Shown piece after piece: positions 1 to 27,668 of a DNA stretch of 27,668 nucleotides. Numbering within the stretch: the first letter of the stretch is position 1; each line of letters starts with the position of its first letter. This stretch comes from a virus (Duplodnaviria > Caudoviricetes), in IMG/VR virus record IMGVR_UViG_3300037311_000445, positions 1-27,668 of that record. One strand, given 5' to 3'. A program made the position numbers and the translations under genes. The notes beneath the pieces are model-generated. The model saw nothing but the letters and a program-made list of their open reading frames with translations. It was not told the origin of the DNA and ran no database searches.

Positions 1-1671
1 TTATGCTAAAAAATCGGGTGCTTGAATCGCTAGTAACACCGCATCGTAAAGGCTTTTTCCTGCGGTTCGAAATCACTTATCCTTATCATAGAATAGTTTG
101 TCCCCAAAGAATACCGTAACTAGAAGTCTTTTGAGTTCGACGTTAGACATTTCCCAAACCATTCTAGGTGACAGGTAGATGTTCTTTGCCTGAACCAATA
201 ACTCTTTTAGTTCCTGATCCGAGATTTTTTCATTCTCATCCAGTTGTTTTTGGTAGTTTTCTTTTTCAATACGCATCAATTCTCGTTCTGCTTCAAGTTC
301 TTCTACAAGATGTACATTATCTGTTTTGAGAATAATTCTACGTGCTTGTGTCATTTCCTTTTGAATTTTTTCTACTGCTTTCTGTTTCTCTTCATTGAGT
401 TTATTTTGAAACCCCTTTCTGTTTTCTCGGAGTCTTTTGATTACCTCTTCCATCAAATTTCGTACTTCTTCATTTACAGTGACCCTGGAAAGGAGGGCAT
501 CAAAATCTGCATGATATAAGTCACGTTTTACTTGAAATCTTTTGGGATCACTTTTGTTTTGGCATCCATAATAGGCATATCTACTATTACGTCCTTTTGC
601 TCGATATCCTGTTAGTTTTTTTTGGCAATACCCACAAAACATGAAATCCCTTAATGGAAAATCAGGATTGTTTTTGAGCATTGTCTTCCCTATGAATTTA
701 CTTTCGTGTCTTTTTTTCAGAATTTTATCGACTGTTTCCATGCTTATCAATGGTTCATGATGTGCAGGAATAAGTTCATCTATTCATCGTTGTGGATGAT
801 GAATAAATCCTGCCATGAAGTAGAGTCTATTCAAAGTGAATAGGGTTTCTACGATGGTCTTATACAATTCTGCCTTGGTATTATGTTGACTATTGCTTTG
901 TAAGCCTTTGTCTTTCATGTACCTAAAGACGGCTGATTCACTCTCGAGTACTCCGTTGGCATAGAGCTCTAATGCTTCTTTGACGATCGGTCACTTTGTT
1001 TCGTGAATGACTACCACACTGTTTTTTCATTGTCTTTCTCTTTTGTATCCAATCGGTACTAACCCAAACGGTCGATACCCTTCGAGGAGTCTTGCTCTCA
1101 TACCGTTCATCGCTTTTACCCTTGTGTTTCTTCTCTCGAATGCGGCGAAAGCATACAAGATGTTTTCTTGTAACATTCATGCACTCGTGTTGTAATCTAC
1201 AGGATACATCACATAGACGATCTCAACACCAGCCTCTCTGATCTTATTTGTCATCACCAGAGTTTCTGCTATGTTGTCATTTCTTGAGATTCTCGAGTTA
1301 TCTACGCAGATAAAATGCGTAATAATCGGCGTTCAATCTGTGTTGGCATACATACGAGGATCGTCACCAGGTTTGATTTTTTTCTTGTCCTTTTCTCGTT
1401 TGAGAATTCTCTTTTTTTGTTTATCGAGAATCTCTAGGACTTCATCAAAACCATCACGATCGAACGTCCCTCAGGATATTCAACCATCTTTGATGACCTT
1501 ATAGACCAGTGCATCGTTTTTGTCGCACCAATCTTTACACATGGATTCTTGTGTTTCCATACCGAAGCGTTCCTCAGCTTGACGCTTGGTACTTACACGA
1601 CAGTAGATCAAAGCTACCTTTTTTTGAGCAGACAAAGTGCTCTTGTTTTGGAATGGGTTTTGTTTATACAT
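1..1671 (-). CDS. Large serine recombinase (integrase), 556 aa
   Basis: N-terminal ALIYCRVST..Q catalytic motif, recombinase domain (EGY[W]PFG..PIGY, HEPLIS), Zn ribbon CGYC...YYGC and coiled coil. ORF-track pieces 1480-1809 and 73-750 are one frame joined through TGA codons, ending at TAA 1-3. Confidence 0.92.
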
Positions 1672-1889
1672 GGTGCGTTGTAAAAAAAGATAAAATCCTT
1701 TTTGGTTACCCAAATACCAAAGAAGGTCAGAAGGTCGTGTTTCTTTCCCAAACCGACCTTTTTTGGTATAACTAAAACTAGCCAAGTTTTCAAGCCAAGA
1801 ATAGCTCAATCATATACGTTCAAAGGTGTTCGGCAAAATCCACCAACTTTTCCACCTGTTGATCACTCAGGTGAGTATTTGTATCTAAC

Positions 1890-1933
1890 AAAAAACGCCT
1901 AGCATCATCAATAGATACTAGACGTTTTTTTTT
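1890..1933 (-). terminator. Intrinsic terminator-like hairpin upstream of the recombinase
   Basis: The minus strand reads AACGTCTAGTATC-TATTGAT-GATGCTAGGCGTT-TTTT, a stem completed by G-U pairs. A/T tracts on both sides suggest it may be bidirectional. Confidence 0.55.
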
Positions 1934-2125
1934 CACTGACCGACGAAGGGTCATCAATCCGTTCACAATGTACTCACTTTACGTTTTTTGTTTGGTGCAT
2001 GGCAGATATGTAAGGAGGATAAAAACATCACAAACATTCCGATAACATTCTCAATAAAGATGTAATTATTTTCTTGAAAAATTCATTCGCAAAAAAAGAA
2101 ATTCTGATAACTAAATATTCTTGAC

Positions 2126-2155
2126 TTGAAAAATAAAAAATTATTCGTATATAGT
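2126..2155 (+). promoter_or_regulatory. Putative sigma70-type promoter for the regulator/packaging operon
   Basis: TTGAAA (2126-2131), 18-nt spacer, TATAGT (2150-2155). The region is AT-rich, so a chance match is possible. Confidence 0.35.
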
Positions 2156-2238
2156 AGCCAATCTGGAAGGAAAAGAGCGTTTGTGGACACTCAATGCAGT
2201 ATTGCATTGTCTGTTGGCTGACGCTCTTTTTTATTTTT
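2156..2238 (+). promoter_or_regulatory. Structured 5' leader (terminator/antiterminator-like)
   Basis: AAAAGAGCGT 2171-2180 pairs with ACGCTCTTTT 2221-2230, followed by a T-rich run. An inner stem forms from CAATGCA/TGCATTG. A crossing alternative pairs AGCCAA 2156-2161 with TTGGCT 2214-2219. Confidence 0.4.
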
Positions 2239-2251
2239 CCAAAAAAAAGCC

Positions 2252-2683
2252 ATGCCACAAAAAAGAGGTAGGAAACCCGTCAACGGGTACATCACTGATT
2301 ACAAACTGTACAAAGATGCCTTTCATCATCTTCTCAAATATATCCATGAGAAGAATCTTCCGAGCTTATATACGAAAGGTAAAATAAACTTCTGAATTCA
2401 TGAACACGATATCATACTCTCCTATATGCTTGATAGTCTCAAAGTTGAGACAACGATAAAAATCGATCTCTCTGATCGTAGACACTGTGATGAACTGAAT
2501 AGAGCTATTCAGGATTTTTTCATTGAAACTCGATACTTGTATGAGCGAGATGGTACTGCTACCAAGAATCAAGACCTCGCAAAGATTCACTGAGTTTCTC
2601 CGCAAGCTATGAAGGTAACTCTTCAAAACATCAAAGACAAGATGAGCCAATTCCGTAACCGTCTGTGATATCAGTCAGAATAA
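2252..2683 (+). CDS. Sigma70 region-4-like HTH protein, probable late-gene transcriptional activator, 143 aa
   Basis: Missing from the ORF track; open with TGA=Gly. The C-terminal KNQDLAKIH[G]VSPQAMKVTLQNIKDKM is HTH-like. It lies shortly upstream of the packaging genes, as RinA/ArpU-type activators do. Confidence 0.65.
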
Positions 2684-2719
2684 TTTTTTTGTCAGATTTT
2701 TATTATTTTTTCTTATCTC

Positions 2720-3925
2720 ATGAAAATTATTAATCTGCCAGTGGATCAATTGATCCCGTATGAGTTCAATAACAAAATACATCCTGAGGATCAGATCAAC
2801 AAAATTGCAAATAGTATTCAGGAGTGCTGATTTAGATCTCCTATCCTGATTGATGAAAACAATGTCATCCTTGCAGGACATGGAAGATTGCTAGGTGCAA
2901 AGAAGCTATGATTGAAAGAAGTGCCAGTGATACAATTTACTGATCTGACAGAACTCCAAAAAAAGAAGTATCGTATCTTGGATAATAAACTCGCAGATCT
3001 TGCTGAATGGAATATTGAAAATTTGAAGATCGAACTTGCAGAGATTGGAGACGCTGATCTTACTGATCTATTTGATGATTTAGATTTGTGATTGGATGAA
3101 GTACTGGATGTTGATGAAGAGAAAGAAGATGACATCCCTGCCGTTCCTGAAACTCCTCGAGTACAACTGGGAGACGTGTTTGAACTCGGTAGTCATAGAT
3201 TGATTTGTGGTGATGCTACCAACTTGGAGACCGTAGAGCAACTCGTAGACGGTCAGCAGGCAGACCTTGTGATCACTGACCCACCCTACAACGTCAACTA
3301 TGAGTGAAGCAGTGGTATGAAAATCCAAAACGATGATATGTCGAATGCTGACTTTTATCAGTTCTTATATGACGTGTATACGAATATGTGTACGGTACAA
3401 AAAGAAGGCTGATCGATCTATGTGTTTCATGCTGATACCGAGGGAGAGAATTTCAGAAAAGCAATGGTCAATGCAGGCTACAAACTTTCTCAATGTCTCG
3501 TTCGAGTAAAAAACTCATTGGTGATGGGAAGACAAGACTATCATTGGAAGCATGAACCTATCTTGTATGGTTGGAAAAAGAATGGAGCACATCAATGGTA
3601 CTCTGACAGATCACAAACGACGGTCTGGAATTTTGATAAACCACTCAAGAATGATATTCACCCTACGATGAAACCAATCGAGATCATTGTGTATGCACTG
3701 AATAACTCCAGTAAGAAATGAGAGCTTGTGCTTGATGTTTTCTGAGGTTCTTGAAGCACGCTTATTGCATGTGAAAAGACAGCAAGGAGATGTTGTACGA
3801 TGGAGCTTGATCCGAAATATGCACAAGTGATTATTCAAAGATATTATGACTATACGAAAGGTAAAAAGACTATTTCGTGTCTTAATCGTAAGATCAAACT
3901 CAAGGATCATTTATCATTGTCATAG
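2720..3925 (+). CDS. ParB/Srx-domain fused DNA N4/N6-methyltransferase, 401 aa
   Basis: N-terminal ParB-like SIQEC[G]FRSPILID..ILAGHGR, then ITDPPYNV (motif IV), CLV[W]VKN..GRQDYHWKHEP, HPTMKP and VLDVF[G]GS[G]STLIACE (motif I). Confidence 0.93.
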
Positions 3926-3931
3926 TTCTCT

Positions 3932-5915: not shown

Positions 5916-5970
5916 ACTGATTTTTTTATACCGTGAGTATAAGCAGTGAAATTTTATCCACTGCTTTTTT
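5913..5970 (+). promoter_or_regulatory. Conserved late-promoter-like motif plus hairpin (copy 1, before portal)
   Basis: TAGACTGA-N12-GTGAG-TATAAG. Hairpin AAGCAGTG/CACTGCTT 5941-5966 followed by a T run. Confidence 0.7.
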
Positions 5971-5975
5971 CTTGG

Positions 5976-7442
5976 ATGCAACAAAAGATAACTCTCGACA
6001 GTATCATCACCAGCGAGGTCTCCAAAAGATCAAAGTTTCAAAAGATCTATGAGAACGAAGCCAGCCACTTTGTGTTGTGAACATACAAAGCCAGTGTTTT
6101 CAATATCAAATCCTATCTGAGCGACAAACAAGAAAAGGATGAATACTTGTATCTTACGGTCAATCTGCTTTCGTTGATGGCAAATACTACTGCCGATTAC
6201 CTGATCGGTGATGGTATTGAAATTGCTATTGATAACGAAGAGGCTCAAAAGAAATGGAACGAGATCGCTCATGCAAACAACTTTGATCAGTTGGTGTACA
6301 ATATTTCTTTGATGAATGGTATCTACGGCTATGCAATTCTCAGAGCAAGAAAAGATGAGGAACAACAAATCATCTTAGAAGAGATACCGTATGATTATTA
6401 CTTTCCACAAGTCGAAGGACTATTTTTGGGAGAAGAACCGAGAGTGATTTATTTGATCAGCAAGATCAATGAAACACTCAATGCACAAGTCCAATCCAAA
6501 GCAAAGATACAATCCTATACCAAGTTAGAGAATGGGAAGCGACTGATTGAATATGGGTTATTCAAAGTCTCACTCGATGGTTGTCAGTATACCTTAGAAC
6601 AAGAACTCGCTCCTGCTGAGCAGTTAGACTTCCTGAATATCTATCGTTTCGACAACAGAAAAACTTCCAACAAGTATCTCGGGATCAGTGATTATTGTGA
6701 TGTGCTTGATCTCTTAGAAGAGGTCAACGATAGGTTCACACAAATATCGGTACAGTTTATCAAACACCTCAACAGTAAAATTTCTCTTCCTGAATGAGTA
6801 TCTGCATTACTCCAAAACAAAGATAAGAAAATTCAGAACTTAGAAGTCTTTGTGCATAGAGCGGGAGAACAACCTGCTCAGTACATTGAAAACCATAACT
6901 CACTCATTCCCGAAGCTCAGAATTATATTGATAAAGTACTGAAACTAATCGGTGCAATCACACAAATCCCTATTTCTTTCTTTTGATTTGAAGAGTCAGG
7001 AGGTGCGGAGAAAGTGGAAGCATTGAGAATCAGACTGACAAAGTTTCTCAAGAAAATCCAAAGGAAACAAAGAATCTTAGAGTTGATGCTTATCAAGTTA
7101 GTGAAACAAACACTAACCTTTGCAGGTGTTCAATGAGAGTTTACCGTGGATATTAAATTCTCGGATGCGATGCTCAAAGACCTCCAACAAAACACACAGA
7201 TGTATATTGATCTTTTCAATACCTCTCTCGTCTCTCAGCATACAGCCATCGCAAACATCTTCAATCGAGATGACGAGATGGTCAAAAAAGAACTCAAACG
7301 CATCAATGATGAGCAAGATGAAAAGCTCAAAAAACAACAACTTTTATCTCTTTCTCCTGATACCAATGGCAATAATTGATCCAAACAAAAGCAACCAGGA
7401 ACTAAGAACGGTACTGATTCTTCTTCTGCTTACAAACAATAA
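5976..7442 (+). CDS. Portal protein (SPP1 gp6-like), 488 aa
   Basis: Position after terL and typical size. Motifs GISDY..V.DL.EE.N and SGGAEKVEALRIR. Track pieces 6147-6797 and 7146-7379 share one frame. Confidence 0.85.
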
Positions 7443-7548
7443 GGAGTTTTGGTGGAAACTTATCAGACTTCTCATCTTTGTGTCATTTGCAATTATCATA
7501 ATCAGTGTCTCGTGTATTTTACCACGGGTACTTCTTTTGAAACTCTAA
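7366..7548 (+). CDS. Small membrane protein, 60 aa, overlapping the portal 3' end
   Basis: ATG 7366 to TAA 7548 with a hydrophobic stretch LIRLLIFVSFAIIIISVSCILP. It fills the gap up to promoter motif 2. Confidence 0.4.
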   Translation: MAIIDPNKSNQELRTVLILLLLTNNKEFWWKLIRLLIFVSFAIIIISVSCILPRVLLLKL

Positions 7549-7604
7549 TAGGTTGATTTTTTATGTACGTGAGTATTGTGCATCGTAGTTTTATTTTCTA
7601 TGAT
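7549..7604 (+). promoter_or_regulatory. Conserved promoter motif plus hairpin (copy 2, before scaffold/capsid)
   Basis: TAGGTTGA-N12-GTGAG-TATTGT. The stem ATCGTAG 7582-7588 / CTATGAT 7598-7604 includes ATG 7600. Confidence 0.7.
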
Positions 7605-8241
7605 CAAATCTTCCATGCCAGATGATGTAAAACCAAACGGTACAGGTGCCGATACTACCTGAAACCCAGCTCCTGCAAGTGACACCCCACCTGCATGATG
7701 AGCCGACACTAAAACAGATCCAAAGGGTGATAATTCAAACGATACTATCCCTTCTTGGAGACTCAAAGAAGAAGCGGATAAACGTAGAGAGTTGGAAACA
7801 AAGCTCAAAGACTACGAAACCAAGGAAACGGAAAGAGAAAAGAAAAATCTCGAGAAACAAGGCAAGTATAAAGAGCTTCTTGATACTGCCAATAAAGAAG
7901 TGGAAACACTGACCGCTAAAGTTGGTGTCATTACCGAGTACGACACTGCCATTACGGGTGTTGTCGATGCTGAGCTTGCAACCATCAAAGCAAGCGTTGG
8001 TGATGAGAAGTTCGAAAAGATCACTTCATTACTCAATATCAATGCACTGACCGCACTGCAAAAACTCCAAATCTTACCTAAGCTTAAAGAGCTTGTCGGC
8101 GAGTTTGGAGAAAAGAAACCTGATCCGAAAGGTGGTCATAGTATCCCTCAACACGATACAACTACCTATGATAAAGCGAAAGGAGCTGGTGACTTCAACG
8201 GCATGCTTGGTTCAATTATCGAGTGAGTACTGAAAAAATAA
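7600..8241 (+). CDS. Head scaffolding protein, 213 aa (start 7600 or 7615)
   Basis: Low-complexity P/D/G N-terminus, then TIPSWRLKEEADKRRELE and a coiled coil with EKQGKYKEL. Located between portal and capsid. Confidence 0.75.
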
Positions 8242-8268
8242 TATTTTTACTTTTTGATAGCTTATCCT

Positions 8269-9435
8269 ATGTCACAATTATCATTTGATCTATCACAGAT
8301 CACCGAGAGACAAGTCCTGGACTTGTTTACTCAATTCCTCAAAGAACAATCCTCAGCATTGGAGATTTTTTTGAGAAACGGACAGAAATATAATGCAGGT
8401 ACTAACAACAAATATGAGTGGATGGAAAGCCAACTTACTCCTATGTCTTGGCAACTCAATGGTGCTATAACGCCATTAGTAACCAACACCAACTTCACCT
8501 TCGTATCAACGGCAGGATTAAGACCAAATATGATCTTAAGATTTGTCACGACATCAACGAATGGTGATGTCGGTAATGTACAAGTAAAGATTGTGAGTAT
8601 TACTTCTGCTACGGTAGCAGTCGGTGTTTTGTATGGTGGTACAACAGCCGTTGCACTTAACAACACCATGACAGCAAAACTCATGTCTGAAGCTGTACAA
8701 GAAAATGAAAAAAATATTGTTGGTGTCGATGAACGACAACCTACTATGGAATTCAACTTCTTCCAAATTTTCAGAAACGCTGTTGAACTTTCTGATACTG
8801 CATTGAACTCTGCGGTATATGGAAACGTGAACACCCTTGCTGAACAGCTCAAAGGAGCATTCTACAAGATGAGACAACAACTCTCTGAACAAGTATTGAG
8901 AGGTCGTAGAGTTGCAAGAACATCAGGTGAAAACGGTACCTTTGGAGGTATGTTTCAATATCTCGATGTAGCAGGTGGAAATGTTATTGATGCTGGTGGT
9001 GCCGCATTATCGCAAGCACTTATAAACAATCTTGTGCAGTTGATTATTGAAGACGGAGGTGTTGCAAATACCATTGTCTGTAATATTAACCAAGCAAGAA
9101 AAATCTCAGGATTCAATGTTGCAGGTAACAATCCCGTGATTGCTCAAAACTCTACTGATGCAGGTAGTTATGTATTGAGATTTATCTCTGATATTCCTGT
9201 CGCAGGTGGTGTGGTATCAAATATCCTCTTGGATGAAAAGATGCCAAATAATGGAATTCAGTTGATTGATATCAACAGGATGGCTCTTGTCCCTTATCAA
9301 AACAGAGGTGTGAAACTTGTACCAGGAACCCAACCAGGGCAAGATGGACAAACAGCAATCCTCAGAGGTGAATATTCAATGGTCGTGAGAGATGCAAAAT
9401 ACTCACACGGTATCATCAAAAATATTCTCCCATAA
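8269..9435 (+). CDS. Major capsid protein (SU10/DUF5309-like HK97 fold), 388 aa
   Basis: Follows the scaffold. Motifs KYEWME, NFFQIFRNAVELSDT, GTFGGM and a C-terminal GEYSMVVR..HG.I.N. Confidence 0.85.
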   Translation: MSQLSFDLSQITERQVLDLFTQFLKEQSSALEIFLRNGQKYNAGTNNKYEWMESQLTPMSWQLNGAITPLVTNTNFTFVSTAGLRPNMILRFVTTSTNGDVGNVQVKIVSITSATVAVGVLYGGTTAVALNNTMTAKLMSEAVQENEKNIVGVDERQPTMEFNFFQIFRNAVELSDTALNSAVYGNVNTLAEQLKGAFYKMRQQLSEQVLRGRRVARTSGENGTFGGMFQYLDVAGGNVIDAGGAALSQALINNLVQLIIEDGGVANTIVCNINQARKISGFNVAGNNPVIAQNSTDAGSYVLRFISDIPVAGGVVSNILLDEKMPNNGIQLIDINRMALVPYQNRGVKLVPGTQPGQDGQTAILRGEYSMVVRDAKYSHGIIKNILP

Positions 9436-9462
9436 TTTTTACTTTCTTAATCGCACACGCTC

Positions 9463-9810
9463 ATGCCTTCAAAAAAATCAAAACAAGCTCCTGTTGATGA
9501 AACACCAGAAACAGAAGATGAAAACATAGATGAAACAGATATCGAAACTCCTCCTGAAGAGGACGAGAACATAGAGCCTGAGGTGGAGAATGATCCTGTT
9601 CCTGAAGAGACACAAGAACCTCCTTTGGAACAGGCTGTTCACTTTAGAAATGCCAACATTACCTCGCTGTCATTCGTAACAGAAACGGGTAAGATGTACA
9701 GTTTTACTGATGGTGTTTTTAGTACGTATGATCAAAATGTTATTGAAAGACTCAAACAAACTGAGGACTTCAAAAACTGATTCATTACTGAATTTGACCC
9801 TGAAGCATAG
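9463..9810 (+). CDS. Acidic hypothetical virion-module protein, 115 aa
   Basis: E/D/P-rich N-terminus. Reads through TGA 9778-9780 to TAG 9808-9810. Confidence 0.65.
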
Positions 9811-9828
9811 TCTGACTTTTATTTTTTT

Positions 9829-10041
9829 ATGCATACTGCTATGGATGTTTGTATCACGAGAGATTGTCAGATAGACGACGTTTTTCATCACGAAGGTGAA
9901 GAACTCACGATTGAAGATCATCAATTTAATCCTGATTGTATGAGGAGAGTCGAGCCTCTCCCTGAAGAAGAGAAACCGACCGATGAAGCACCTGATGATC
10001 CACCACCTGACAATAAAAATTCTAAAAAAGGAAAAAAATAA
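9829..10041 (+). CDS. Small hypothetical head-module protein, 70 aa
   Basis: Clean ATG-TAA ORF after a T-rich leader, with an acidic/Pro then Lys-rich tail. Confidence 0.6.
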   Translation: MHTAMDVCITRDCQIDDVFHHEGEELTIEDHQFNPDCMRRVEPLPEEEKPTDEAPDDPPPDNKNSKKGKK

Positions 10042-10077
10042 TCTGACCGAAACGATGAGCATATGCTTGTCGTTTTT

Positions 10078-10108
10078 TAGATTTACTTTTTGTGGTTGTG
10101 AGTATGAT
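10078..10108 (+). promoter_or_regulatory. Conserved promoter motif (copy 3)
   Basis: TAGATTTA-N12-GTGAG-TATGAT. Confidence 0.7.
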
Positions 10109-10142
10109 GTCCGTACTTTTCATCCTTTATGCAACATCTCTC

Positions 10143-10568
10143 ATGACTCACAATATTACCGCACCCTTTGTGAAGACTACAACACTTATTACTAACCTTG
10201 CAAACGAAGCAGATGCAACGGTCGATAAGTATGTGCAAAGAGCATTGTCGATTGTTCTTTCGTATATCAACGGTCAGCAATTTTATGATGCAGAGACAGA
10301 TACCTACACCTTTCCTGAACAACTCATCCTTGCCGTGGTCTATGTCGTTGAAACCATCTATCTCGATCAGGGTATGTTTGCAGGAAAAAATAATCTGCAA
10401 TCAGAAAGCATCGGTGATTACAGCTATTCTAAAAAACAGGATGCCAAAGTTCTCCCACTTGATCTGCCTGCCAATATTATGGCGATGCTTGATCCGTACA
10501 AAAATTGGTGTGGAAATCTTGATGTTGATGTTGGGTGATACGATAGAGTTTATCCTGTAACTTCATAA
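10143..10568 (+). CDS. Head-tail adaptor (SPP1 gp15/HK97 gp6-like), 141 aa
   Basis: SESIGDYSYS and LPANIMAMLDPY motifs typical of adaptors, plus gene position. Confidence 0.75.
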
Positions 10569-10571
10569 CTC

Positions 10572-12623: not shown

Positions 12624-12656
12624 TGGTTATTTTTTATCTTCTGCATACATTTTCCT

Positions 12657-13025: not shown

Positions 13026-13216
13026 CCATTGCGATGAAATATTATACGCAATCGTTAGAAGCCACTATGGCAATGACTGCCTATCAATTTTTTTCTCTTG
13101 TACAAGAGATTGAATACCTAGAAGACCCACACAAACATTGTCCTGTCTCTCTTCCCAAAGAGAAGATGAAAAAACTGCAACAGAAGTCAGATTTTGAAGA
13201 ATTTTTATTTGGGTAA
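12938..13216 (+). CDS. Tail assembly chaperone extension (gpT-like), probably reached by -1 frameshift
   Basis: The -1 frame is open from the T TTT TTT heptamer (12938-12944) to TAA 13216 and includes track ORF 13034-13216. Confidence 0.55.
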
Positions 13217-15334: not shown

Positions 15335-18300
15335 ATGGCAAAGACCATCTTCGAACTACTCTGGGATTTGAAGGTTGACAGAAATGGTATCGCTCAACAA
15401 CTCAATCAAGTGAGAGATGATATCAACGGTTTCAATCAAAGAATAAAGGATCAAACAGCGATCCAACTTTCTTTGAATGTGTGAAAACTCAAAGCCCAAC
15501 TCGACGAGGTCAAGAATCAATTGAAACTTGCAAGAGACCAATGAAACCGTGATTCAGTGATACAATTAACTGCTGATGCATCAAGACTTCAACAATCACT
15601 AACCCAGGCAGGAAGAGAGCTCAGAAACTATACGAGGACAGGGTCAGCAGATATTTCTGTCTTGTGAAAAAACTTTCAGTGAATCAATAGTGAAGTCCTC
15701 AAACAAGGGAGTATTATCCAAAGCACAGTGGAAAAAATGAAGATTTCCTTTGTGGGATTGAAAGAGGTATTGATCACCGCATTTTCTGTTACTGCATTAA
15801 CACAATTTGTCAGAGGTATCTTTGATCTGACCTCTCAAGTACAACAAGCAAAGATATCATTCACGACACTTTTCAAAAGTGAGGAAATAGCAGTGAAACT
15901 TCTCAAAGATATCCAGACCTTTGCTAAGCAGACACCGTTCGAGCAGTTTGGGTTGGTCGATGGTGCAAAAAGACTCGCCGCATATGGATTCAAAGCACAA
16001 CAGATTCTCCCGATTATGAAGTCGCTTGGAGATGCAGTTGCTGGTGTGGGATGATCGCAAGATACATTGAATGGTGTGATCGTAGCATTAGGACAAATGC
16101 AAACCAAAGGAAAACTCGTCCAACAAGAAGTGAATCAGATTGCAGAACGTGGTATTCCTATCTTTGAAATTTTGAGAGAAAAACTGTGATTAACGCAGGA
16201 GCAACTTGCTGATATCGGTAACCAAAACATCAGCTCTGCACAAGCTATACCATTGATTCTTGAAGGTATCAATGAGAAGTTTTGATGATTGATGGAACAA
16301 CAAGCACAGACGATTCAAGGAAGACTGAGCAACATTATTGATAGTTTCAAAATCAATATGTCCAAACTTGGTGAAGTATTGGAGCCTATTTTTTCAGGAA
16401 TACTCAGTAGTCTGTCAGCTATCATTACTCCTGCTTTCAATATTCTCATTCTTGGAGTCAAAGGATTTATGGCTGTCTTCAAAGCAGTCTTTGAGGGTGC
16501 AAATCTAATCTATACTATTTTTGCAAACAACTTTGTGATCATTACCAAGACAATTCTTGCATCATTCCTTACGGCGTTGGTGATCATGAAACAACAAACG
16601 ATTATCTCATTTGTGCAATGAGTCGTGAACCAGTTTGTCAGAGGGATGGTATTGATGGGAAGTTCAGTATTGAGTTTCTCGAGAGCATCGTTGAACTTCA
16701 TTGTGAATATCAGACAGATCACCACGGATGTCATCCAAGCAACGCTAGCCTTGTGAAGGAAAGCGATCGCTTGGACGGTAACGACGGCAAGGACATACGC
16801 TCAGATCATTGCAAACAACATCGCATCCTTTTCATTCCGTGCTTTGGGAACGAGTATCTTGAGTGTAATCAAAAATCTTATTTTCCTTGGTGCAAGGTTC
16901 TTCTTGATAGCATCCATCGTGACGGCAATCGTGGTGGCTATCTTTACGAACTGGAATACACTCAAAGAAAAGCTGAAACCTGTCTTTGATTTCATGGCAA
17001 AGATTGGTCAAGCTGTACCACAGGCTATTGCGAAGGCATGGAACTTTGCAGTGGATGTGATCTTTGGAGCAATCAAAGGTATTCTATCGTCAGGAAAAGC
17101 AGTCGCTGACTTTTTGAAAAATACCTTCAACGTAGATATCGGGACAGCGAATATCGACAAGTATATGGCGAGTATTGATCAAGCAAGAAATAATCTGCAA
17201 ACCAATGCTGACGAAGTGAAATCCATCTTTGAGGGTATCGCTGATGAGACAGGAAATGCCTTCACATTCATCAAAGATCAGGTCTTGGGAACAGGTGCAA
17301 GTACTGATAAGTTGGGCGATGATGTCTTATGATTGGCAGGAAAGTTTGATGACATGGGAAACTCCTCGGAAGATGCACACAAAAAGTGAGCAAAAGCAGG
17401 AGGTGAAGCTCAGGAACAACTCAAAGAGTTAGAAAGTACCACCAAAGACCTCGAAAAGGCAAATGATAAATTAGAAAAAACAATTCAGAACGTCAGTGAA
17501 GCTCAACAAGAGTACAAAGATGCGGTCGTGGATTCGACGAATACGATCAAAAATAATCTTAGAGAAACACAAAGAGAATATGATAAAACTATCAAGAAAA
17601 TTCAGGAAACGAGAGAAGAAGAGATCAAGAATATTGAACTCCAAAAGTCACAAGACAAAAATCAGAACGTGCAACAGTTCGCACAATGACAAGCAGAAGA
17701 CTTGGCAAAGTCTCAGCAAGAACAAACAAAGTTGGAAACCAAACTATCAGGAGAAAGTGATAGTGATAAGAGAGTGGAGCTTCAACAACAGATCAATGCA
17801 GAGATAGAAAAACAAGTACAGCTCCAAAAAAACCTTGATGATCTCAAAAAACAAGCTCAAAAAGATGGTGTGGTCAATATTGATCAGTTGATCCAAGAAC
17901 AGCAACTGAGAGCAAAGATGACCGATGAACAAAGGGCGTTTTATGATTTCAAGAAACAACAAGAAGGAGTTGATACCAAAGCTCAGCAGGATATTTTGAA
18001 AGCTAATCAGAAAGCGGTCGATGATCAGAAAGAAGCCGAGACAGAACTTGCTCAAACTCAGCAGTCATTGGAAAATCAAAAGAAAATTATCTCTGCATTG
18101 GATAATGTAAAGTCAGTCACCAAAGCACAAGTAGAGAGTTTTTTGAGTTCAGCGAGTTTTGCAAAGTTCGATGAAGATAGTCAAAAACTTTTAGAAAAAC
18201 TTCTTGATCTCAAATTGAAAATATCGGATGCCACTAGAGAAAAACAATCTGCTCAGGCGGATGTAACGAAAATAGGATGAAAACTACAGGAGGATAGTGC

Positions 18301-19084
18301 AAATACTCAACTTGCAAATATTGGGAAAACGAAAAAAGAATACCAAGAATTACTGACACAAATTAACGATGCACTCGCAAAATCAGAAACACTGAAAGCA
18401 CAGTCAAAAGAACTTTGATCGGTTTCTCTTTCTACACCATCCGCACAATCTTCCCTTCCAACACCAGAACAGCCGTCAGGAGAAAATACAGCCAATGATC
18501 AAGCGGTTTTAGAGACCAAAAAAGCGAACATTCAACAGCTCGCTGACTTCAAACTCGAGAAGTCTACCGAAGACACAGAAAACCAATTAACCTCATCTGA
18601 ACAGGAGATCGCTTTGCATCTTGCTACCATTCAACAAATACAGGATGCACAAACACAGTCTTTGGTACAACTACAACAGATACGACGTGCCTATTTTGCC
18701 AATCTTGTCTCTACTACGAGATCGACCGTGACTACTTTGATGGGAGAATACAGCAGATTGATTACTCAGCTTTTGTATATCATTTCCTTACAGCAAAGAG
18801 CTGGAGGTGGATGAAGGTGATTTGCTGTGGGTTGATTCACCTGAGGAACCGACAGAAACAAGATAGCGGGAGTCGTGCATCAGGGAGAATATGTGGTTCC
18901 GAAATGGATGGTCGATAAGTACACACCCTTGGTGAGTAATCTTGAAAATATCAGAATGAGAGGGTTCGCAACAGGAGGTTATACATCTACTACAAACAGG
19001 TCGGTCAACATCAATGGAAACATCCATGTGGGAAGCGGTCATGATCTCAATCAACAGTTAGACTACTGGAAATGGAAGATTTAG
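15335..19084 (+). CDS. Tape measure protein, 1249 aa
   Basis: Tape-measure domain FAKQTPFE..L..GAKRL.AYG..LGQMQTKGK..E.NQIAERGIP, hydrophobic helices, long coiled coils and a C-terminal GVVHQGEYVVP. Six track ORFs share this frame. Confidence 0.92.
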
Positions 19085-19147: not shown

Positions 19148-20167
19148 TTACAAGCCTTGTTCGTATTTCAATAATACTTCTTCAATTTGTTCTTGTGTTG
19201 GTAGTTTTTTTGCCTTATCTCAGAGGTGTTTACTCTCCTCATATTTACTTACTGCTATAGGTTTGTTAATATCCTTGAGTGCATAACGCACAATATGCTC
19301 TTTCTTATTTTTACAGATAAGTAGTCAGATGGTTGGATTATGTTCAGGTCTTTTGACAACTTCGTCTACAACATTTACATAAAAGTTAAGCTTTCCGACA
19401 AATTCAGGTTTGAAGTCTACTACTTTGAGTTCAACAACGATATAGCAGTTCAACTCTACATGAAAGAAAAGTAGATCAATGAAATATGAATCTCCCTCAA
19501 CTTTAATTTCGTATTGGCTTCCAATAAAAGCAAATCACATTCATAACTCCAATAAGAATTCTTGAATTCTTAGTAATAGTCAGTCGTGTAAATCTTTTTC
19601 TTTGTACTTTTTACCAAGACTTAAGAAATCAAATAAGTAACTATCTTTGAGTGCAAGTTTTGTATCTTCAGCTTGCTGAGCAACAAGTGTTTGATCGAGA
19701 TTATTGTCTTTGTGAGCAATCATAAATCTTTCGTAGTATTCTCCAGTTATCATGTTATCAAGCACTCTCGCAGACCATCATTCTTTTTTCGTAATAAGCA
19801 TGTAAAATTGTCTTTGTAAGTCGTCTTTACATTTTTCTAGTATGAGAAGGTTATTACTCCAGCTAATTTCTAGGGACAGTGTCCCCAGTTTTTCATTATC
19901 CTTGTATGCCTCGTAAAACTTCACCATTCTTCGGATGTTATCAGCAGTGAAACCTTTGATGCCAGGAAAGTCTCTTTTAAGATCAATTGATATATTTTCT
20001 ATAACACTCTTTCATCGGTCTTGTTTGTCAGAGATCATTTTCCCAATTCCTGAGTACAATATCAGTAAACTCTTGTTCACTGAAGACAATGCTTTGTACT
20101 GAGCTTCTTGGATTCTTGATTTAATCTCTAAGAGAAAATCTTTGTATTCGAGAGCGAGTTTTGTCAT
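19148..20167 (-). CDS. DUF1016/YhcG-family PD-(D/E)XK nuclease-domain protein, 339 aa
   Basis: VN..L..LY..IGKMI, D[W][G]KSVIE, GF...NI[W]RM..FY, ISWSNN, KDSYLFDFL, FLLELG.GFAFIGSQY, IDLLFFH..LNCYIVVELK...FKPEFVGKLNFY. Confidence 0.93.
19870..19894. repeat. In-gene imperfect palindrome; 19873-19894 is a perfect 22-bp inverted copy of 19084-19105
   Basis: The minus strand reads GAAAAACTGGGGACACTGTCCCTAG, encoding EKLGTLSL. Confidence 0.85.
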
Positions 20168-20247
20168 GAAAATAAAGTTATGAATAAAGCCAAATACGGG
20201 GAAATCCAAACTACTGAAACTTATAAGAATTTCCTTTTTTATCTCAA

Positions 20248-20311
20248 TACATTTACTTTAGATTGGTATGAATATAATAGGTTTCGTTTACTTTGCAAGC
20301 ATCAATCTATG
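20248..20311 (+). promoter_or_regulatory. Conserved promoter motif plus hairpin (copy 6, before distal tail gene)
   Basis: TACATTTA-N12-ATGAA-TATAAT. ATAGGTT pairs with AATCTAT, which overlaps ATG 20309. Confidence 0.6.
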
Positions 20312-21184
20312 ATCTGAAATCAATTCTTTCGAGATGGTTATAATCTCATGCAAACAAACCAAGACTACAGAATTGCAGTCAGTGATGTGCAATGGAGAAA
20401 ATTGAAGGTGTCGGACGATAAACAAGATTTGATTGGATACCATGGGACATTGACCTGACCGACGTATGCGAGAGGAAGGACAATCATCATCGAGGGCGTG
20501 ATCATAGCACCGATTAGAGAGTTAACTTCCAAAGCAATGGACTGGTTGGATGCTTTGTTTGCTTTGCAAGGTGTGCCGAGTACGGTCGAAACTAAAGAAC
20601 TCAAAATCATTGATGAGCAAATGAGAGAATGGGTGATCCGCTGTAAAGTTGATCAACCTGTAGATTATGAAATTGAAGAAGATAACGACCATAATGATGG
20701 AGCGATAAGAAGACGAAGGGTCACCTTGTTTGCCTCCGACCCTAAGTTTTATTCAACTATTGATTCATTGTTTTATGGTCAAGAAGGAAATTATGGTGGT
20801 TTCCAATTACCCAACACGATGTCCAACCAACGAAATATGACCTATAATGAGATCAATTGTTTGACTACTTCGAACGCTGATCAACCAATAAAAATAACCA
20901 TTACGGTAGGTGGAAATATCAACAAACCACTGACCATCTACAATGTCACAGCCAATAAATGGTTCATGCTCGACATCGATGCAGACCCTGGAGACGTGAT
21001 TGTCATCGATGCAAAAAATCAGACTGCTACCAAAAATAGTCTGAATGTTCTTGGGTATAGAGTTCCATGATCGCAACGACCAACCGTCAAAGGGATTACC
21101 AAATACGTCATGTACGATGTGGACGGATGAATCTACGGCAGTGACTTTGATGTCGCTCTTTCATTCAATAACTCGCTCCTGTAA
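20309..21184 (+). CDS. Distal tail (Dit-like) protein, 291 aa
   Basis: First structural gene after the tape measure. RGRTIIIEG.I, VTLFASDPKFYS and a beta-rich C-terminus. Confidence 0.7.
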
Positions 21185-22242
21185 TGGCAATTATTGGATA
21201 CGTGTATGATAGGCATAACAACTTGATCTGACAACTCTTTGACGTTGTTGGTTTTCAATGTTCATTGAAACTCAATGATGTATCGACAGGAGAACTCACT
21301 ATCAGCAATGAAAACTTGCTTGATGCCTTACTAATTTTGAAAGAAAATAATCGTATCAAAGTGATGGAAGGACAGAATGGGACGGAGAGATTACTGATCT
21401 CTTGATACATGAGAGGGATTGAAGCGACTCTAAAAAATACGGTCATAAAAATCGAGGATATGATCAGTTTTTTGGATGACAAAGTATTATTCAATCCAAT
21501 GACTTATACCTGACCAATCAACACCTTACTTCAACAAGTATTGACGCAGATTAATCTCAGAGAACAAACAGAACTGACGTGTATTAGTGATGTTAGTGCG
21601 AGTGTTACCAAAAAATATGAGAAGGGAGAAACGTTCGCAAACGTCCTCAAAGATCTGAGAGAAAATGCCTATGAATATATCGTTAGAGATACAGTTTTGT
21701 ATTTCAATCACACGATCGGAATTGATAGATCAGTACCTTCAAACGATTATTATGAGTTTGTACGAGATATAAACTCACCGTTGGATAGAACGATCAGAGA
21801 TGCAAAGCTAGTAATGGATATTAAACAAATGTGCAATTCCTGTATTGGAAAAGATGGTAATGCCTATGGTTATGCAGAAGACCTGACGAGCATCCAAGAG
21901 TTTTGAAGAATAGAAAGAAGTATGACCAATAGTGGAAATATTCAACAAGCGACACAAAACTACGTCAACGAGAGGAAAGATAGTATCAAGGAGTTTGATA
22001 TTTCTCCAAACATTCCTGACTTTTTTGCTTGTGATGTGGGAGATGTTGTCAGGGTGTATATCAATTCAGGAAACGATCTGATGTTTTATGATGGAAGCAT
22101 GAAAGTCATTGAAAAATCCTATACGGCTGGAGAGATGACAAAGGTGACCTTCAAATTGTGAAAAAGTAAGGTGAAAACTATTGATCTTGCTGAAAAACTC
22201 AGGGAGATAAACAGAAGGGTCGGAAAACTGGAACTTCAATAG
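21184..22242 (+). CDS. Baseplate hub / minor tail protein (Tal/Gp37-like), 352 aa
   Basis: TAATG-coupled to the Dit gene, with a C-terminal DVGDVVRV motif. One frame through TGA codons. Confidence 0.65.
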
Positions 22243-22300
22243 ATTTATTTTTTGGTGCGGTGAGTACAATGCTGTCATTTATTTATTGATAGCATTTTTT
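22240..22300 (+). promoter_or_regulatory. Conserved promoter motif plus hairpin (copy 7, before tail fibre)
   Basis: TAGATTTA-N12-GTGAG-TACAAT. Stem AATGCTGTCA-TTTATTTAT-TGATAGCATT followed by Ts, then ATG 22302. Confidence 0.7.
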
Positions 22301-22301
22301 C

Positions 22302-25300
22302 ATGGAAAGATGTTCACTGCTCAATGGAAATATAGCTAATCAAGATAGTGATTACTCAGCACCATTACTGGCTTTGACCGATGGTGGTGTTTTGCAATGA
22401 TTGCAAGTTTCCTTGAGCAGTGGAAATAACTTTCAGGTAACAACAGGAAGTGCATTGATCAAATGTACCAAAACCAACGGCGATAAAGTCCTGATTCATT
22501 TCCAAAATACGGCTATCAAAGCACTGAGTTTTGCCTGACCACAAAAAGTCCGAGTTGAAGTAAATCAGTCGAATTTGGACAATCCCTTACTCAATCCTAT
22601 CACCTGATTGGGTATCGGTGAGATCAAGTTTGGTTTGAACTATCCGATAAAAAACTATGTGCCATTGGCAGTGGTCAACGGATCAAATGTGGTCACCAAT
22701 GATCAGGTCGTGATCAACAATATTACGAATGTTATCAATCAAGCAATCACACAAATTCAGATTGGAGCGACTACCTTTTCAGGGACATCAGCTTGACCAT
22801 CCAATGTCTATAATCTGACCTATACAACACCAGTTCCTGCTTCCACTTCTGGTGATCCGACGAGTATCCCTCAGAATATTTTGTTGTATTTCAGATCGCA
22901 TCAAGCCAACACAACGAATATCCAAGTTTCCATCAATACCACTGAATGAGTCCTCACCGCACCATTGAAAAAAATGCATGATCAGGATTTGAGTGCAGGA
23001 GATATCGAAACCGATCAGCGAGTGATCATGCAACGAGATGGTATTAGTTTTCAAATGCAATCACAGATCGCTCAAGTCCCAGTAGGTACGGTGCAAAATG
23101 TAGCCATACAATGACAAGTCGGAGAAGACGTGACGGTTGGTCAGGTTTGATTTGTTGGAAAAGGAATTGTCGATAAACTCAGGATAGAACAACTTGAAGG
23201 AAATACTACCTACAATGTCGGTGATGGTGTGAATATCAGACTCAGAGCAATGATCCTTACAGGACGTGATAATATTCTCAGAAAAGTAACGGTCAATCTT
23301 GGTAAGGTTGGTAGTCCTGGTGATCAGCTCTACTGTAGAGTCTATGCAAAAGATGGAGTAACACTTGTTGCGTCAAGTACCAACTATTATGACAATGGTA
23401 CGATAGCGTCTAGTAATGAGCAAAGAAACTTCTTTTTTAGTGATCTCGTCTTACAGCCACAAACAAAATATTTCATCTCCTTTGAAAGAACAGGAGCGAA
23501 CAGTCCGACAAGTTATTACTCACTGAGATCATCGAATACAAACCTTGTGTATCCGTTAGGATATGTCGAGAAATACAATGGATCAGTGCGAGAATGGTTG
23601 CAGTGATATATTTGGGTTTCAATACAACTTGGATTTAATCATGAGCCAGGTAAACGATATTTATCACAACCTGAGTACGAATCTACTGCCTACATGGACG
23701 GTATTTTCACACAAAATAAAAATCAGAATCAGATTTGTGATATCGTACAAGACGGTACGGCTAGTTCATTTACCAATCTGACTCCTGGAAACAATTACTA
23801 TCTCAACAATGTGGATATAGGAAACAAGAATCAGCAACGAAATACGACCACCCACTTTGGATACGATATCACCAACCAAAACAAGGTCTGTATGAGTTTC
23901 AAACTTTCCTACGGTATGAATACCGACAAGATTTTCATGGCACTGGCGAGAGTAAATACACCGACCGATAATATAACATTCAGTATTCAAACTGATGATA
24001 ACGGGAAACCGTCAGGAACACTCGTGCATCCGAATGCCACAGGAACGATCGCAGGAAATAAGCTTATGACACAACCATATAGGAAAATGTACTCGTTCAA
24101 TGGATTTTTTGATTTGCAAGATACGACAATTTATTGGATCGTTTTGGAAAGAGATGGTGGACTCAATACCTCTCATTACTACAGTACGCAGATTTACAAC
24201 AGTGATACTTACACGAGAGGTAATATGATGGTTTATAATAACTTGAACTGGATCAATCAAAGCTGGGACATGTACTTTTCGTTTATGCAAGAATACGATG
24301 GAGTTAGACATCATAGCTACAATGAAAATAGAAACTTTGGAAATAATAGTGCATGAAGTATCGTATCCACTCAGAGCTTTCAATCAGTCGATCAAAAAAC
24401 AGTGCAATCCATCATGTTGGGAGTATGGCAAGTCTCTGCTCCGACAGATGGGATCAGGATAAGAATAGAGAAAAACTTTAGTCAGATACCATGAACTACC
24501 TGATACTATAACGGTAGTTGGAATAGTACGGATGTGCAATTTGGTACACCAACGATCGAAAAGTTTTCTCAGAGTTTTGTCGGAACACAAAACTTAGAAA
24601 CCTGACTACTGTCTCTCCATCTCAAGAAAAATAACGTACCGACCGATGCGATGGTAGTAAGGATTGAAACCGATAATGCAGGTTCACCAAGTGAACTATT
24701 GCTTGATCCAAACTCTACTGCTACCATCCAACCATCTGCTCTCAGTACGAGTTTTGATTGGATCACTATACAATTTCCAACATCGTTGAAGTTTACCTCT
24801 GGTACGAAGTATTGGATTGTTCTTCAAAGAACAGGTGCAACGAATACTGTACATAGCTACTCGGTTGGAAAACATACGAGTGATGTTTATACACCTGGAG
24901 AAACCAAAGCATATCTCACATGATCATGGACAGCTAACAGTGGAGATATTCTTTTCAGATTTGCTAATCAAGACTTTGATGTCGATGCTCCAAACGGAGA
25001 ACTTGTTAATCCTAATGCAGAAATCGTTGTGCCTGCGTCTCAGCTCTCTACAGGATTTAGAAATCAATCCTTCGACTTTCCTGCTGGATTTACTATCGCA
25101 CCAAACACGAAATACTGGATTGTGCTAAGTAGAACATGAAGCCAGTTTAGTACCTGATATTATCAATGTGCCGTGCATAACGGTGGGACATTCATGTATG
25201 GTCACTACATGGAAACCAGCAATGCGGTCTACAATGTTTCTTGATTAGAAAATAGGAACCTATTTTTCAATCTTGGTTTTCACTACGAAAGACCTGAAGG

Positions 25301-25769
25301 CATTATCAATAGTCAGATCGCATCATATCTCAACCGATGTACCTTTGTCGGAAGATGATTGAGTAATTCACAACTGGCAATGAAGAATGGAAAGATGGTA
25401 GGAGATAATCCAAAGACGATCAACGTCAGTGCCTGGACATACCATAGTGCCAGCTGTACCTATTGTAATACCGAAGCTTGGTGAAACGTTTTCACCGTCG
25501 GAATTGGAAGCATGAGATTTGAGGTGTGAGGATCAGGAAACCGATCGAGTACAGGAAGATTATATATGGCGGAGGATGAACAGACGCTTCTCAATGGTTG
25601 ATGAACATTGCTATACACGTTGAATACCTGAAGCATCACTTTTGTCGCCAACCCAACTAAAAAATACAGAATCAGATTGAACGGTGCGACTACCTGTGGT
25701 TCATGATGTGGTGCAAATCACTACGCACAAATTGTATTTGAACCGTACGCTGGTGTGCTGATCGTGTAA
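22302..25769 (+). CDS. Tail fibre / receptor-binding protein with four related beta-sandwich-like modules, 1155 aa
   Basis: Track ORFs at 22608, 23229, 23694 and 24651 are in frame. The motif T(K/I)Y(W/F)I.(L/F).R.G recurs four times. Confidence 0.8.
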
Positions 25770-25800: not shown

Positions 25801-26178
25801 ATGATACTTCGTAATACTGCCAATGAGATACTGTTTTGAGTGAAACCATGAAGCTTTGTAAATATCCCTGATGCACACTCGGACAGGATTAATGAGCTCG
25901 TAGAAGCCTGATTTGAAGAACTCGGAGAGGTACTGTATATGTCACTCGAGGACTTTGATCCAAGGATATGTTTTCGTGCATTGAAAGAGATTATCAGAAA
26001 TAACTTTGACGGTGATGTGGATGCGATGACTATCGTGGATATGAAGCTCAAGTATATCGAACTCGGTCTTACCGAAAGAATACCACTGATCACCGACGAT
26101 GAAAACAACTGCCAAGGTTTCCAAGATAGCTACGAAACTACTAAAGAGGAAAGAGAGGCAGAAGAGAACGAGTCATAA
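25801..26178 (+). CDS. Hypothetical acidic protein, 125 aa (possible fibre chaperone)
   Basis: Extends track ORF 25939-26178 upstream through TGA codons to ATG 25801. Confidence 0.6.
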
Positions 26179-26199
26179 TTTATCCCATTATCATACACC

Positions 26200-26466
26200 A
26201 TGTTTCAACATATCAAAGACAATGCGATCACAATTACCATCAGTGCTTTTGTTGGAGTACTGGCATTTGTGATTTCTCAAACCTGGACGATTTCTCAGAG
26301 CTATAGTCAGCTTCAAGACAGGATTAATTACATCGAAAAAACCTATGTCAACAAAACGGAGTTTGAAAAGCTTCAGGTCAAGATGGACTACATCTTGGAA
26401 AATATCGGAGAAGTGAAAGACGACGTAAAAGATCTGAAAAAGTCCTTTATTCCATGACAAAAATAA
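26200..26466 (+). CDS. Single-TM coiled-coil lysis-module protein (holin-like), 88 aa
   Basis: N-terminal TM segment AITITISAFVGVLAFVI, then a coiled coil. Located upstream of the endolysin. Confidence 0.6.
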
Positions 26467-26467
26467 G

Positions 26468-26668
26468 ATGCTCAGACGTTATAATCTGTTTCATAGTGTT
26501 GTGAAATTCACCGTCTTCATCCTAAGTATGGGTGCTGTTTTGTGATTGGCATTAGGAAAGATCACAGGAGAACAATATTTGGGAATTCTGACTGCATTCA
26601 TGACCTGATATTTCTCAGGTAGAGTGCCGAGTTCCAAGCCCGAGCCTACCGTCAAAGATTTTACTTAG
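26468..26668 (+). CDS. Putative two-TM holin, 66 aa
   Basis: FTVFILSMGAVL[G]LALGKITGEQYLGILTAFMT[G]YFS; directly before the endolysin. Confidence 0.6.
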
Positions 26669-26680
26669 TCATTCATCACT

Positions 26681-27286
26681 ATGGTACAACCAGTAAGAAA
26701 TAACGATATCAACTCTCTGAGTCCAAGCTACAGAAAAAAGTTTGATCCTTTCCGAAAAGAGGTCAAAGCACTGCGTCCTGATGCAGAGATTTTTGAAGCT
26801 AAGAGATCGTATGAAAGACAACTCCGACTACGAAACGAAAGTAATAGGAGAGAAAAACAAGGATTACCAAGACTGACCCGAACAATGAAAAGCAGACATC
26901 TCACGGGTGATGCAGTCGACATCGTTTTCATGGATGATGAAAGTACTCCGCAGTATGACAACAAACCCATGTGGAAATGACCCTATGACAAGCTCATTGA
27001 GATTGCCAAAAAGTATGGCATCAAAAATCTCAAGCCAAGAGAAACATGTCACTTTGAAGACGATGGTACACCTTTATCTCTTATTCAAAACTTCATGCTT
27101 ACCTTCGAAAAAATCTATAAAGACAAATTTGCAAAAGTTCCTGATACCAAGAAAATCACCTCCCAAGTTGCTAATTGGTATCCGATGATCAAGGATAAGA
27201 CTCCTGCTCAGCAGATGGAAGAACTGACTTGGTTGATTGCGATCAAGGTTGAGGAGTTGAATCAAAAGATTTCTCCTTCTTCATAG
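26681..27286 (+). CDS. Endolysin, peptidase M15 (L-Ala-D-Glu peptidase-like), 201 aa
   Basis: E..RSYERQ, T[W]TMKSRHLTGDAVD and E.CHFE zinc-ligand pattern. Track ORFs 26681 and 27095 are one frame. Confidence 0.85.
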
Positions 27287-27440
27287 TTTCTTCTTTCTCG
27301 GTTTCGAGAAAAATATTGATCAGTTCATATAAAGCTTTTCCTACAGGATTTTCTTCTGTAGAAGGTTTTTGGTATATCATTTTGTCATTTGAAGAAGTAA
27401 AAGTAGATGAGAAGCTACTTTATTTTTTCAAACTTACAGC

Positions 27441-27668
27441 ATGAACATCAAAAAATGAAAAACAGTAAACGGTAAGTATGAAGCTATCATTGACGACGAT
27501 GGTAATGTTCAGAAAGTTATTGTTGAACATCCTAATGCTCACCATGTACCAGGAATTACATCGGACAGGGTCAGGAACCTAGCAGTGACATTGGAAATTA
27601 CTCCCATGAGTGAATCGGAGAGCAAGAGACTCGCTACTTTTTTGACGATGTGATTGAAAGATGGATAA
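27441..27668 (+). CDS. Hypothetical protein, 75 aa
   Basis: ATG 27441 to TAA at the window end; open with TGA=Gly. Confidence 0.55.

Follow-up and report, generated by a model that had tools for sequence, protein, structure and literature searches.

The 27,668-base virus record IMGVR_UViG_3300037311_000445 (Duplodnaviria; Caudoviricetes), analysed here in its entirety and called the window below, is very probably the left part of an integrated temperate phage of the ultra-small Absconditabacterales bacteria, in which TGA encodes glycine and both CGA and CGG encode tryptophan, these codons being read by tRNAs that the host is predicted to supply. The initial annotation, made from the letters alone, had proposed these assignments, which give Trp three codons; they are supported by homolog columns and by codon exchange among sibling prophages, although CGG is thinly sampled.

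With table 11, only 29% of the window lies in stretches of at least 450 nucleotides (nt) without a stop codon; with table 25 this share is 89%. TGA is in frame in 27 of the 30 open reading frames (ORFs) of a separate program-made list. The 29 genes called here cover 92% of the window (8,476 codons) and contain 137 TGA, 55 TGG, 44 CGA and 3 CGG codons.

Meaning of the codons in homolog columns

Homologs were collected for four protein families: a CobW/COG0523-type GTPase (the best 120 of 8,000 scored), a DNA methyltransferase (120 listed), a YhcG protein (150 listed) and a large serine integrase (98, of which 97 were used, the near-identical P0121 being dropped). The queries were table-25 translations, with Arg at CGA and CGG, which introduces a bias against Trp.

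All the codons cited in the initial annotation lie where it had placed them: TGA at 14153, 3743 and 3752, CGA at 3503, 3944, 26879 and 20017-20015 (minus strand), and CGG at 14831. Among the listed homologs, the TGA of the CobW Walker A motif (14153) faces Gly in 120 of 120, and those at 3743 and 3752, in the methyltransferase, in 113 and 110 of 120, respectively. Trp is found in 119 of 120 listed homologs opposite CGG 14831, in 109 of 118 opposite CGG 15068, which the initial annotation had not cited, and in 109 of 120 listed homologs opposite CGA 3503. Four CGA sites of the integrase align with Trp in 58-67 of 96-97 homologs (58/96 at 1074 and 67/97 at 603). At 20017-20015, in YhcG, Trp is the commonest residue, yet it occurs in only 50 of 127 homologs. 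CGA 3944 was compared only with the sibling prophages described below, which have TGG in two of six cases. Opposite CGA 26879, in the endolysin, the siblings have TGG (2), CAT (2), TCA (1) and CGA (1), and the PDB matches to this protein are weak (E 0.24-0.57), none of them with Trp at that position. The claim that these codons occupy family-conserved Trp positions was too strong for 26879, 20017 and 3944.

A Codetta-like sum of log-odds was computed over the four families, leaving out close kin (6 CobW, 13 integrase and 13 methyltransferase rows) and 9 rows that look recoded. It returns the standard meaning for 58 of 62 codons, a result that is partly circular because the standard codons are present in the query; the exceptions are TGA (Gly), CGA (Trp), CGG (Trp) and GCG. 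TGA scores 44.2 for Gly (25 columns), CGA 14.0 for Trp versus -15.2 for Arg (11 columns) and CGG 8.6 for Trp versus -5.3 for Arg (2 columns). Decoding of this kind had been put forward as a check, and it favours Trp over Arg. GCG was rejected as a further reassignment: it is odd on three columns only, and exchanges with Ala codons in the siblings. The minority of Arg at the CGA columns is consistent with databases having given Arg at CGA to close kin; indeed, the alignment of such database copies alternates between W and R at these columns. RNA editing was rejected by reasoning, since a C-to-U change would turn CGA into UGA, i.e., Gly.

Codon exchange among sibling prophages

A genome scan with the integrase alignment identified siblings in SR1/Absconditabacterales records and in metagenome-assembled genomes (MAGs), and 13 sibling groups were aligned codon by codon, with X placed at the test codons. 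The 304 sibling codons that face a CGA of the window include 168 CGA, 103 TGG, 9 CGG and 4 CGC, but no AGA, AGG or CGT. The CGA sites exchange with TGG in 31 of 43 cases and with an Arg codon in one; reciprocally, 31 of the 53 TGG sites exchange with CGA or CGG. None of the 272 AGA, AGG, CGT or CGC sites exchanges with CGA or CGG, while 133 exchange among Arg codons. It is therefore unlikely that CGA means Arg, because CGA-AGA would then rank among the commonest exchanges. Likewise, CGG 5601, in the terminase gene, has TGG opposite in five of six siblings, and the two CGA sites of a putative late-gene regulator both exchange with TGG or CGG. Such an exchange among orthologs, with no counter-case in 272 sites, is a different type of support for the reassignment of a sense codon.

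Host lineage and decoding machinery

Both ends of the record coincide exactly with stop codons, there is no flank, and an integrase gene is present. The stop codons at both ends suggest a provirus trimmed at gene borders, and the window likely represents the left-hand 27.7 kb of a tailed temperate phage, without its right arm.

The nearest homologs that bear a name are labelled Absconditabacterales or SR1; the integrase is 77% and 64% identical to proteins labelled Absconditabacterales. A capsid homolog of 75-99% identity is found in 6 of 141 genomes of the order of SR1 RAAC1, and a weak match in a seventh. The siblings G001-G006 are all placed in this order; in recoded genomes, siblings have tRNA genes next to their integration sites. 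At the DNA level, G001 matches most of the window with 85-89% identity. The element of G005, of about 45 kb, starts at the 3' end of a tRNA-Leu, continues with the same late operon and cargo, and reaches RecT-like and exonuclease (PD-(D/E)XK) genes and a gene of 440 amino acids (aa) without known family, termed rep from its position only. No repressor ORF was recognised by eye in the right part of G005, where no search by repressor families was made.

There is no tRNA gene in the window and no phage-borne tRNA inside the G005 sibling region. From the genomes of G001 and G005, 39 and 37 tRNAs were recovered, and both sets include the anticodons UCA, UCG, CCG and CCA. The tRNA(UCA) of both genomes has G1-C72, C2-G71 and U73, while the UCG and CCG tRNAs have G73 and lack A20, which the UCU, CCU and GCG tRNAs keep (positions were numbered by eye). 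The identity criteria, Gly-type for UCA and Trp-type for UCG and CCG, are those given in the text available of Shulgina and Eddy (eLife 2021, PMC8629427); the G001 tRNA(UCA) has A3-U70, like its own other Gly tRNAs, whereas that text gives G3-C70. In five of five sibling hosts only release factor 1 (RF1) is found: the best match to prfB, the gene of release factor 2 (RF2), is the prfA locus, the single full-length one, which is below the prfB cut-off and scores higher as prfA. The siblings' host genes, including that of RF1, carry in-frame TGA.

The lineage named in the initial annotation is thus supported both by the named homologs and by the tRNAs and release factors of the sibling hosts. 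Its idea of a phage of a recoded lineage holds for the code, but the element is more likely a partial prophage that depends on the host machinery and has no code of its own. The loss of RF2 would free UGA, to which the host tRNA(UCA) would deliver Gly, and the host tRNA(UCG) and tRNA(CCG), with their G73 and without A20, would be charged with Trp. The phage would have drifted into the host code across all its gene classes, while imported cargo, e.g., CobW, would be converted after arrival.

Four records titled Peribacteria or Microscillaceae (L004, L007, L011 and L012) also carry the integrase with in-frame TGA; the three titled Peribacteria fall in the order of SR1 RAAC1, so that the titles or bins are likely wrong. 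In one sibling (L007, L106), the methyltransferase gene directly adjoins the terminal portion of the tape measure gene; the head module is gone, as is the bulk of the tape measure gene, which reflects either a deleted prophage or a misassembly.

Counter-evidence and alternative explanations

Several points weigh against the proposed decoding and host. CGA 3158, 462, 285, 1398 and 19933 lie on columns that are mostly gapped or in which another residue is commoner than Trp, and CGG is based on three window sites, plus 19 sibling codons that face CGA or TGG. The sibling groups are related (G002 and G003 are nearly identical) and do not represent 13 independent lineages, nor are the counts independent events. 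The host is inferred from the siblings because the record holds none of the window's own host DNA, and four of the sibling hosts are MAGs, maybe incomplete, G005 alone being titled a complete genome. Last, the integrase CGA at nt 69-67 (codon 535), which the initial annotation had not noted, has Arg opposite it in 50 of 87 homologs, and codon 535 is CGA in eight and CGC in four of 12 sibling groups, never TGG.

These features of codon 535, at which standard-code homologs mainly have Arg, would be explained if CGA were ambiguous, i.e., read mostly as Trp and partly as Arg, so that some Arg is retained at this position. We regard this as improbable. The 272 Arg sites without a single exchange with CGA or CGG argue against it. 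Moreover, the choice of codons at position 535 of the standard-code homologs (CGA 63, AGA 30, GGA 8, TTG 5, CAA 3 and GAA 3, with no CGC, CGT or CGG among the codons listed) is unlike that at the other Arg columns of these integrases, which are mainly CGC, CGT and CGG, and GGA, TTG, CAA and GAA are tolerated too.

A T-loop-like DNA motif in an attachment (att) arm (62..71, the only exact match in the window) has codon 535 at its centre. Of 80 genome loci, 56 have codon 535 aligned and the end of a tRNA or transfer-messenger RNA (tmRNA) within 500 nt. In 46 of 47 distant loci, 64-67 nt separate the motif from the tRNA end; in nine of nine close siblings the distance is 159-162 nt, and a second copy is exactly 95 nt closer. 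The copies vary in concert in one clade. At the far ends of three siblings, the motif is 4 bp (5 bp by the inner motif) further from the shared core than the tRNA T-arm is. A constraint on the DNA thus suffices without Arg, and the simpler reading of these alignments is that codon 535 is probably kept by this constraint and not by Arg decoding. In the G005 and G001 siblings, BLAST detected no second copy of a tRNA 3' fragment at the far end, the shared core being only 5-8 nt long, and no Rfam family exceeds the cut-off for the hairpin beside the tRNA (seven loci).

The motif is present at both ends of sibling elements (window 62-71; L002-L011; L183:16400-17010; L282-L287): in a terminator-like hairpin after the tRNA, within the integrase gene, in the far att site, about 33 nt upstream of the rep-like gene and inside the 5' end of that gene. 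In the 45-kb G005 element, four of the five matches to the short motif pattern are at the ends. The integrase family is found next to the 3' ends of a wide variety of tRNAs and of tmRNA, in 49 of 61 distant loci (L002-L011, L252-L281, L012-L081), and near-identical elements are found at tRNA-Lys (L003) and at tmRNA (L104). In the phage subfamily, a 95-nt repeat means that the integrase ends on a stop codon of its own beyond the att arm. As described in the accessible text of Rutherford et al. (2013, PMC3783163), the serine integrases of the A118/LI type have the same catalytic, recombinase and zinc-ribbon domains, and a motif that is offset between the attB and attP halves. Unlike in that type, the attB-side motif is here the T-arm of a tRNA, the targets are many tRNAs and tmRNA, the shift measured is 4 bp by the core and 5 bp by the inner motif, and there are extra copies of the motif.

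Another explanation is that the phage forces a code of its own on a host that uses the standard one, in order to time its late genes, as proposed for gut phages of codes 4 and 15 in the text available of Borges et al. (10.1101/2021.08.26.457843). The right arm of the element, which lies outside the window, leaves some room for it, but the window and the G005 sibling region are devoid of tRNAs, the integrase is recoded as well (in-frame TGA and 8 CGA), it is in the capsid gene that TGA is avoided, and the recoding is not confined to late genes. Since the siblings' host genes, RF1 included, have in-frame TGA, these recoded flanks largely refute the switch, to which we give hardly any credence. 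Equally far-fetched is a code-25 host outside Absconditabacterales, with TGA as Gly only and CGA-Trp matches by chance: TGA-recoded loci outside the order that keep CGA and CGG at Arg columns do exist (L296, L297, L300, L301 and L304), but the window has the opposite pattern in log-odds and in exchange counts, the latter refuting this host, the close siblings belong to the order of SR1 RAAC1, and, since the five outside loci keep CGA and CGG as Arg, the double signature points to Absconditabacterales.

Relation to known codes and phages

A code with UGA as Gly and CGA and CGG as Trp has been predicted for the whole Absconditabacteria clade (PMC8629427). The same three reassignments, tRNA set and identity marks are found here, CGG being rarer than CGA and Arg being encoded mainly by AGA; the code is reported there for cellular genomes, and is seen here in a prophage. 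CGA amounts to 52 per 10,000 codons of whole genes here and to under 37 per 10,000 Pfam-aligned codons there, two figures that are not like for like. The host code having already been published as a prediction, its use by a prophage is an expected consequence, and involves no new code or decoding mechanism. It does extend the CGA/CGG reassignment to the viruses of the host. Table 25 misreads about 46% of the Trp codons of this phage as Arg (47 of 102), and its database kin show the same error. If induced, the prophage would supply abundant proteins for proteomics. A study by Yakimov et al. in 2022 may contain proteomic data on the Absconditabacteria code.

Phages and prophages of code-25 Absconditabacteria have been described by Liu et al. 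(2023, PMC10746230; 15 prophages), by Borges et al. and with RSA-ATP1 (PMC13059738). From the text available, they resemble the present element in that TGA is used as Gly in about 90% of genes (27 of 30 ORFs here) and that prophages follow the host code. Two prophages of PMC13059738 also lack tRNAs, whereas RSA-ATP1 has its own tRNA-Gly(UCA), of which the window has none. The main texts of these three papers do not mention CGA or CGG. A similar case is that of the phages of recoded Bacilli with AGG as Met (two assemblies, PMC8629427), which follow the reassignment of a host sense codon and use host tRNAs; the codon and the host differ, and the text available mentions no stop reassignment. No report of CGA or CGG as Trp in a phage was found in the literature searched, most subscription journals lying outside it. 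According to the accessible text of PMC13695967, Arg-codon reassignments are not yet experimentally verified.

Gene content of the window

Terminase, portal, capsid, tape measure, distal tail and lysis genes are present according to Pfam and PHROG matches, and the order of the late operon is kept:

1..1671, minus strand: large serine integrase, 556 aa (Pfam Resolvase and Zn_ribbon_recom over the cut-off, Recombinase under it; PHROG 95)
62..71, plus strand: T-loop-like att-arm DNA motif, containing integrase codon 535 (CGA, nt 69-67, minus strand)
2252..2683, plus strand: putative late-gene regulator, so called from its position (weak helix-turn-helix, HTH_10 at E 0.07 only)
2720..3925, plus strand: ParB-like/N6-N4 DNA methyltransferase (Gly TGA at 3743 and 3752, Trp CGA at 3503)
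3932-4426, plus strand: putative small terminase, without family match
4419-5915, plus strand: large terminase (PHROG terminase matches, tblastn to annotated TerL; CGG at 5601)
5946..11781, plus strand: portal, putative scaffold, SU10-type major capsid protein (8269-9435) and head-tail connectors (family matches)
11853..13216, plus strand: major tail protein (PHROG 807) and putative tail chaperones, the latter from position
13300-13596, plus strand: moron slot 1a, IS1-like zinc-finger/helix-turn-helix ORF (PHROG transposase, E 5e-5)
13599-13970, plus strand: moron slot 1a, second ORF, without family match
14114..15166, plus strand: moron slot 1b, CobW/COG0523-type GTPase (family match)
15335..19084, plus strand: tape measure protein (TMP_3, PHROGs)
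19148..20167, minus strand: moron slot 2, YhcG/DUF1016 PD-(D/E)XK protein (7 TGA, 2 CGA)
20180..25769, plus strand: distal tail protein, Tal-like protein and large putative receptor-binding protein (8 CGA; 1155 aa, without convincing family match)
25801..27286, plus strand: lysis module with small ORFs, holin-like proteins and M15-type endolysin (26681-27286; 4 CGA)

Scans of IMG/VR with the terminase, the capsid protein, the integrase alignment and CobW returned no close relatives, although records near that of the window may have been missing from the set scanned. Among GenBank phages, no match to the endolysin was found, and the terminase matches are below 60% (about 30% in the best rows).

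The capsid gene (8269-9435) uses TGA for 0 of its 35 Gly codons, versus 137 of 516 elsewhere (p 6e-5). This scarcity is shared by G001, G005, G006 and L011 (1-3 of 35-36), whereas the capsid genes of G002, G003 and G004 do use TGA (9-11 of 34 Gly codons). The avoidance of TGA by the capsid gene was therefore rejected as a family rule, since it holds in just four of the seven siblings with data. Slower decoding of UGA in some hosts may account for the scarcity.

Morons and cargo

The CobW gene has three TGA codons, one of them in the Walker A motif, and two CGG codons at conserved Trp positions, but no CGA. This ratio differs from that of the other genes (one CGG and 44 CGA; p 0.003, from tiny counts), while its share of TGA (3 of 25) is lower but not significantly so (p 0.16). 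Within the order, CobW has matches of 44-51% identity. G183, which ranks best in a sample of 401 genomes of the class, is 65% identical, has no TGA and uses CGG for Arg. In two quick trees (84 and 25 rows), the window CobW clusters with G183 and proteins labelled Pacebacteria or Parcubacteria, apart from a clade of TGA-recoded copies. The AU test rejects joining it to 10 such copies (p 5e-6), using a simpler model and a group named after the first tree was seen. CobW thus likely came from a standard-code pool and was converted after its import, as judged from trees and codon counts. On the other side, five database proteins of the same broad clade look TGA-recoded, one recoded-looking protein of this clade has Arg at a Trp column, and the nearest relative, P0001 (77% identical), may itself be of either code.

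YhcG has a counterpart of 79% identity in the corresponding slot of G001, in which both sites are CGA too. The IS1-like ORF uses TGA for seven of its seven Gly codons, contains one CGA, and has DNA matches of 67-76% in three genomes of the order. The initial annotation had the morons acquired from, or adapted within, the same code pool; this fits YhcG and the IS1-like ORF, which have relatives within the order, while CobW is likely a standard-code import. The second ORF of slot 1a (13599-13970), which adjoins CobW, is open under table 25 only, with seven TGA and a His-rich patch, and may not be a gene.

The prophage family could document, in nature, how a code is imposed on genes, with CobW caught in mid-conversion and the purging of codon 535 blocked, a tentative proposal that we find somewhat doubtful. 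CobW would be taking the one-step route from TGG to CGG, long-resident genes being already at CGA. At codon 535, the att motif would have blocked purging, so that the Arg of the family became Trp, and one clade would have escaped by altering all copies of the motif together. In a bolder extension, the extra copies would be operators and the integrase, which may double as a repressor, would repress early genes.

Metal-handling genes are found in the cargo slots (window 14114-15166; L186:2124-3035 and 16383-18635; L182:462-2411): G001 has a cation-efflux transporter in the slot that matches that of CobW, and P-type ATPases are present in G001 and G005. Between terminase and portal, where the window has no such gene, G001 and G005 encode a membrane-anchored protein (L185:6434-7360; L181:18315-19247), whose G001 copy has a DsbA/thioredoxin domain.

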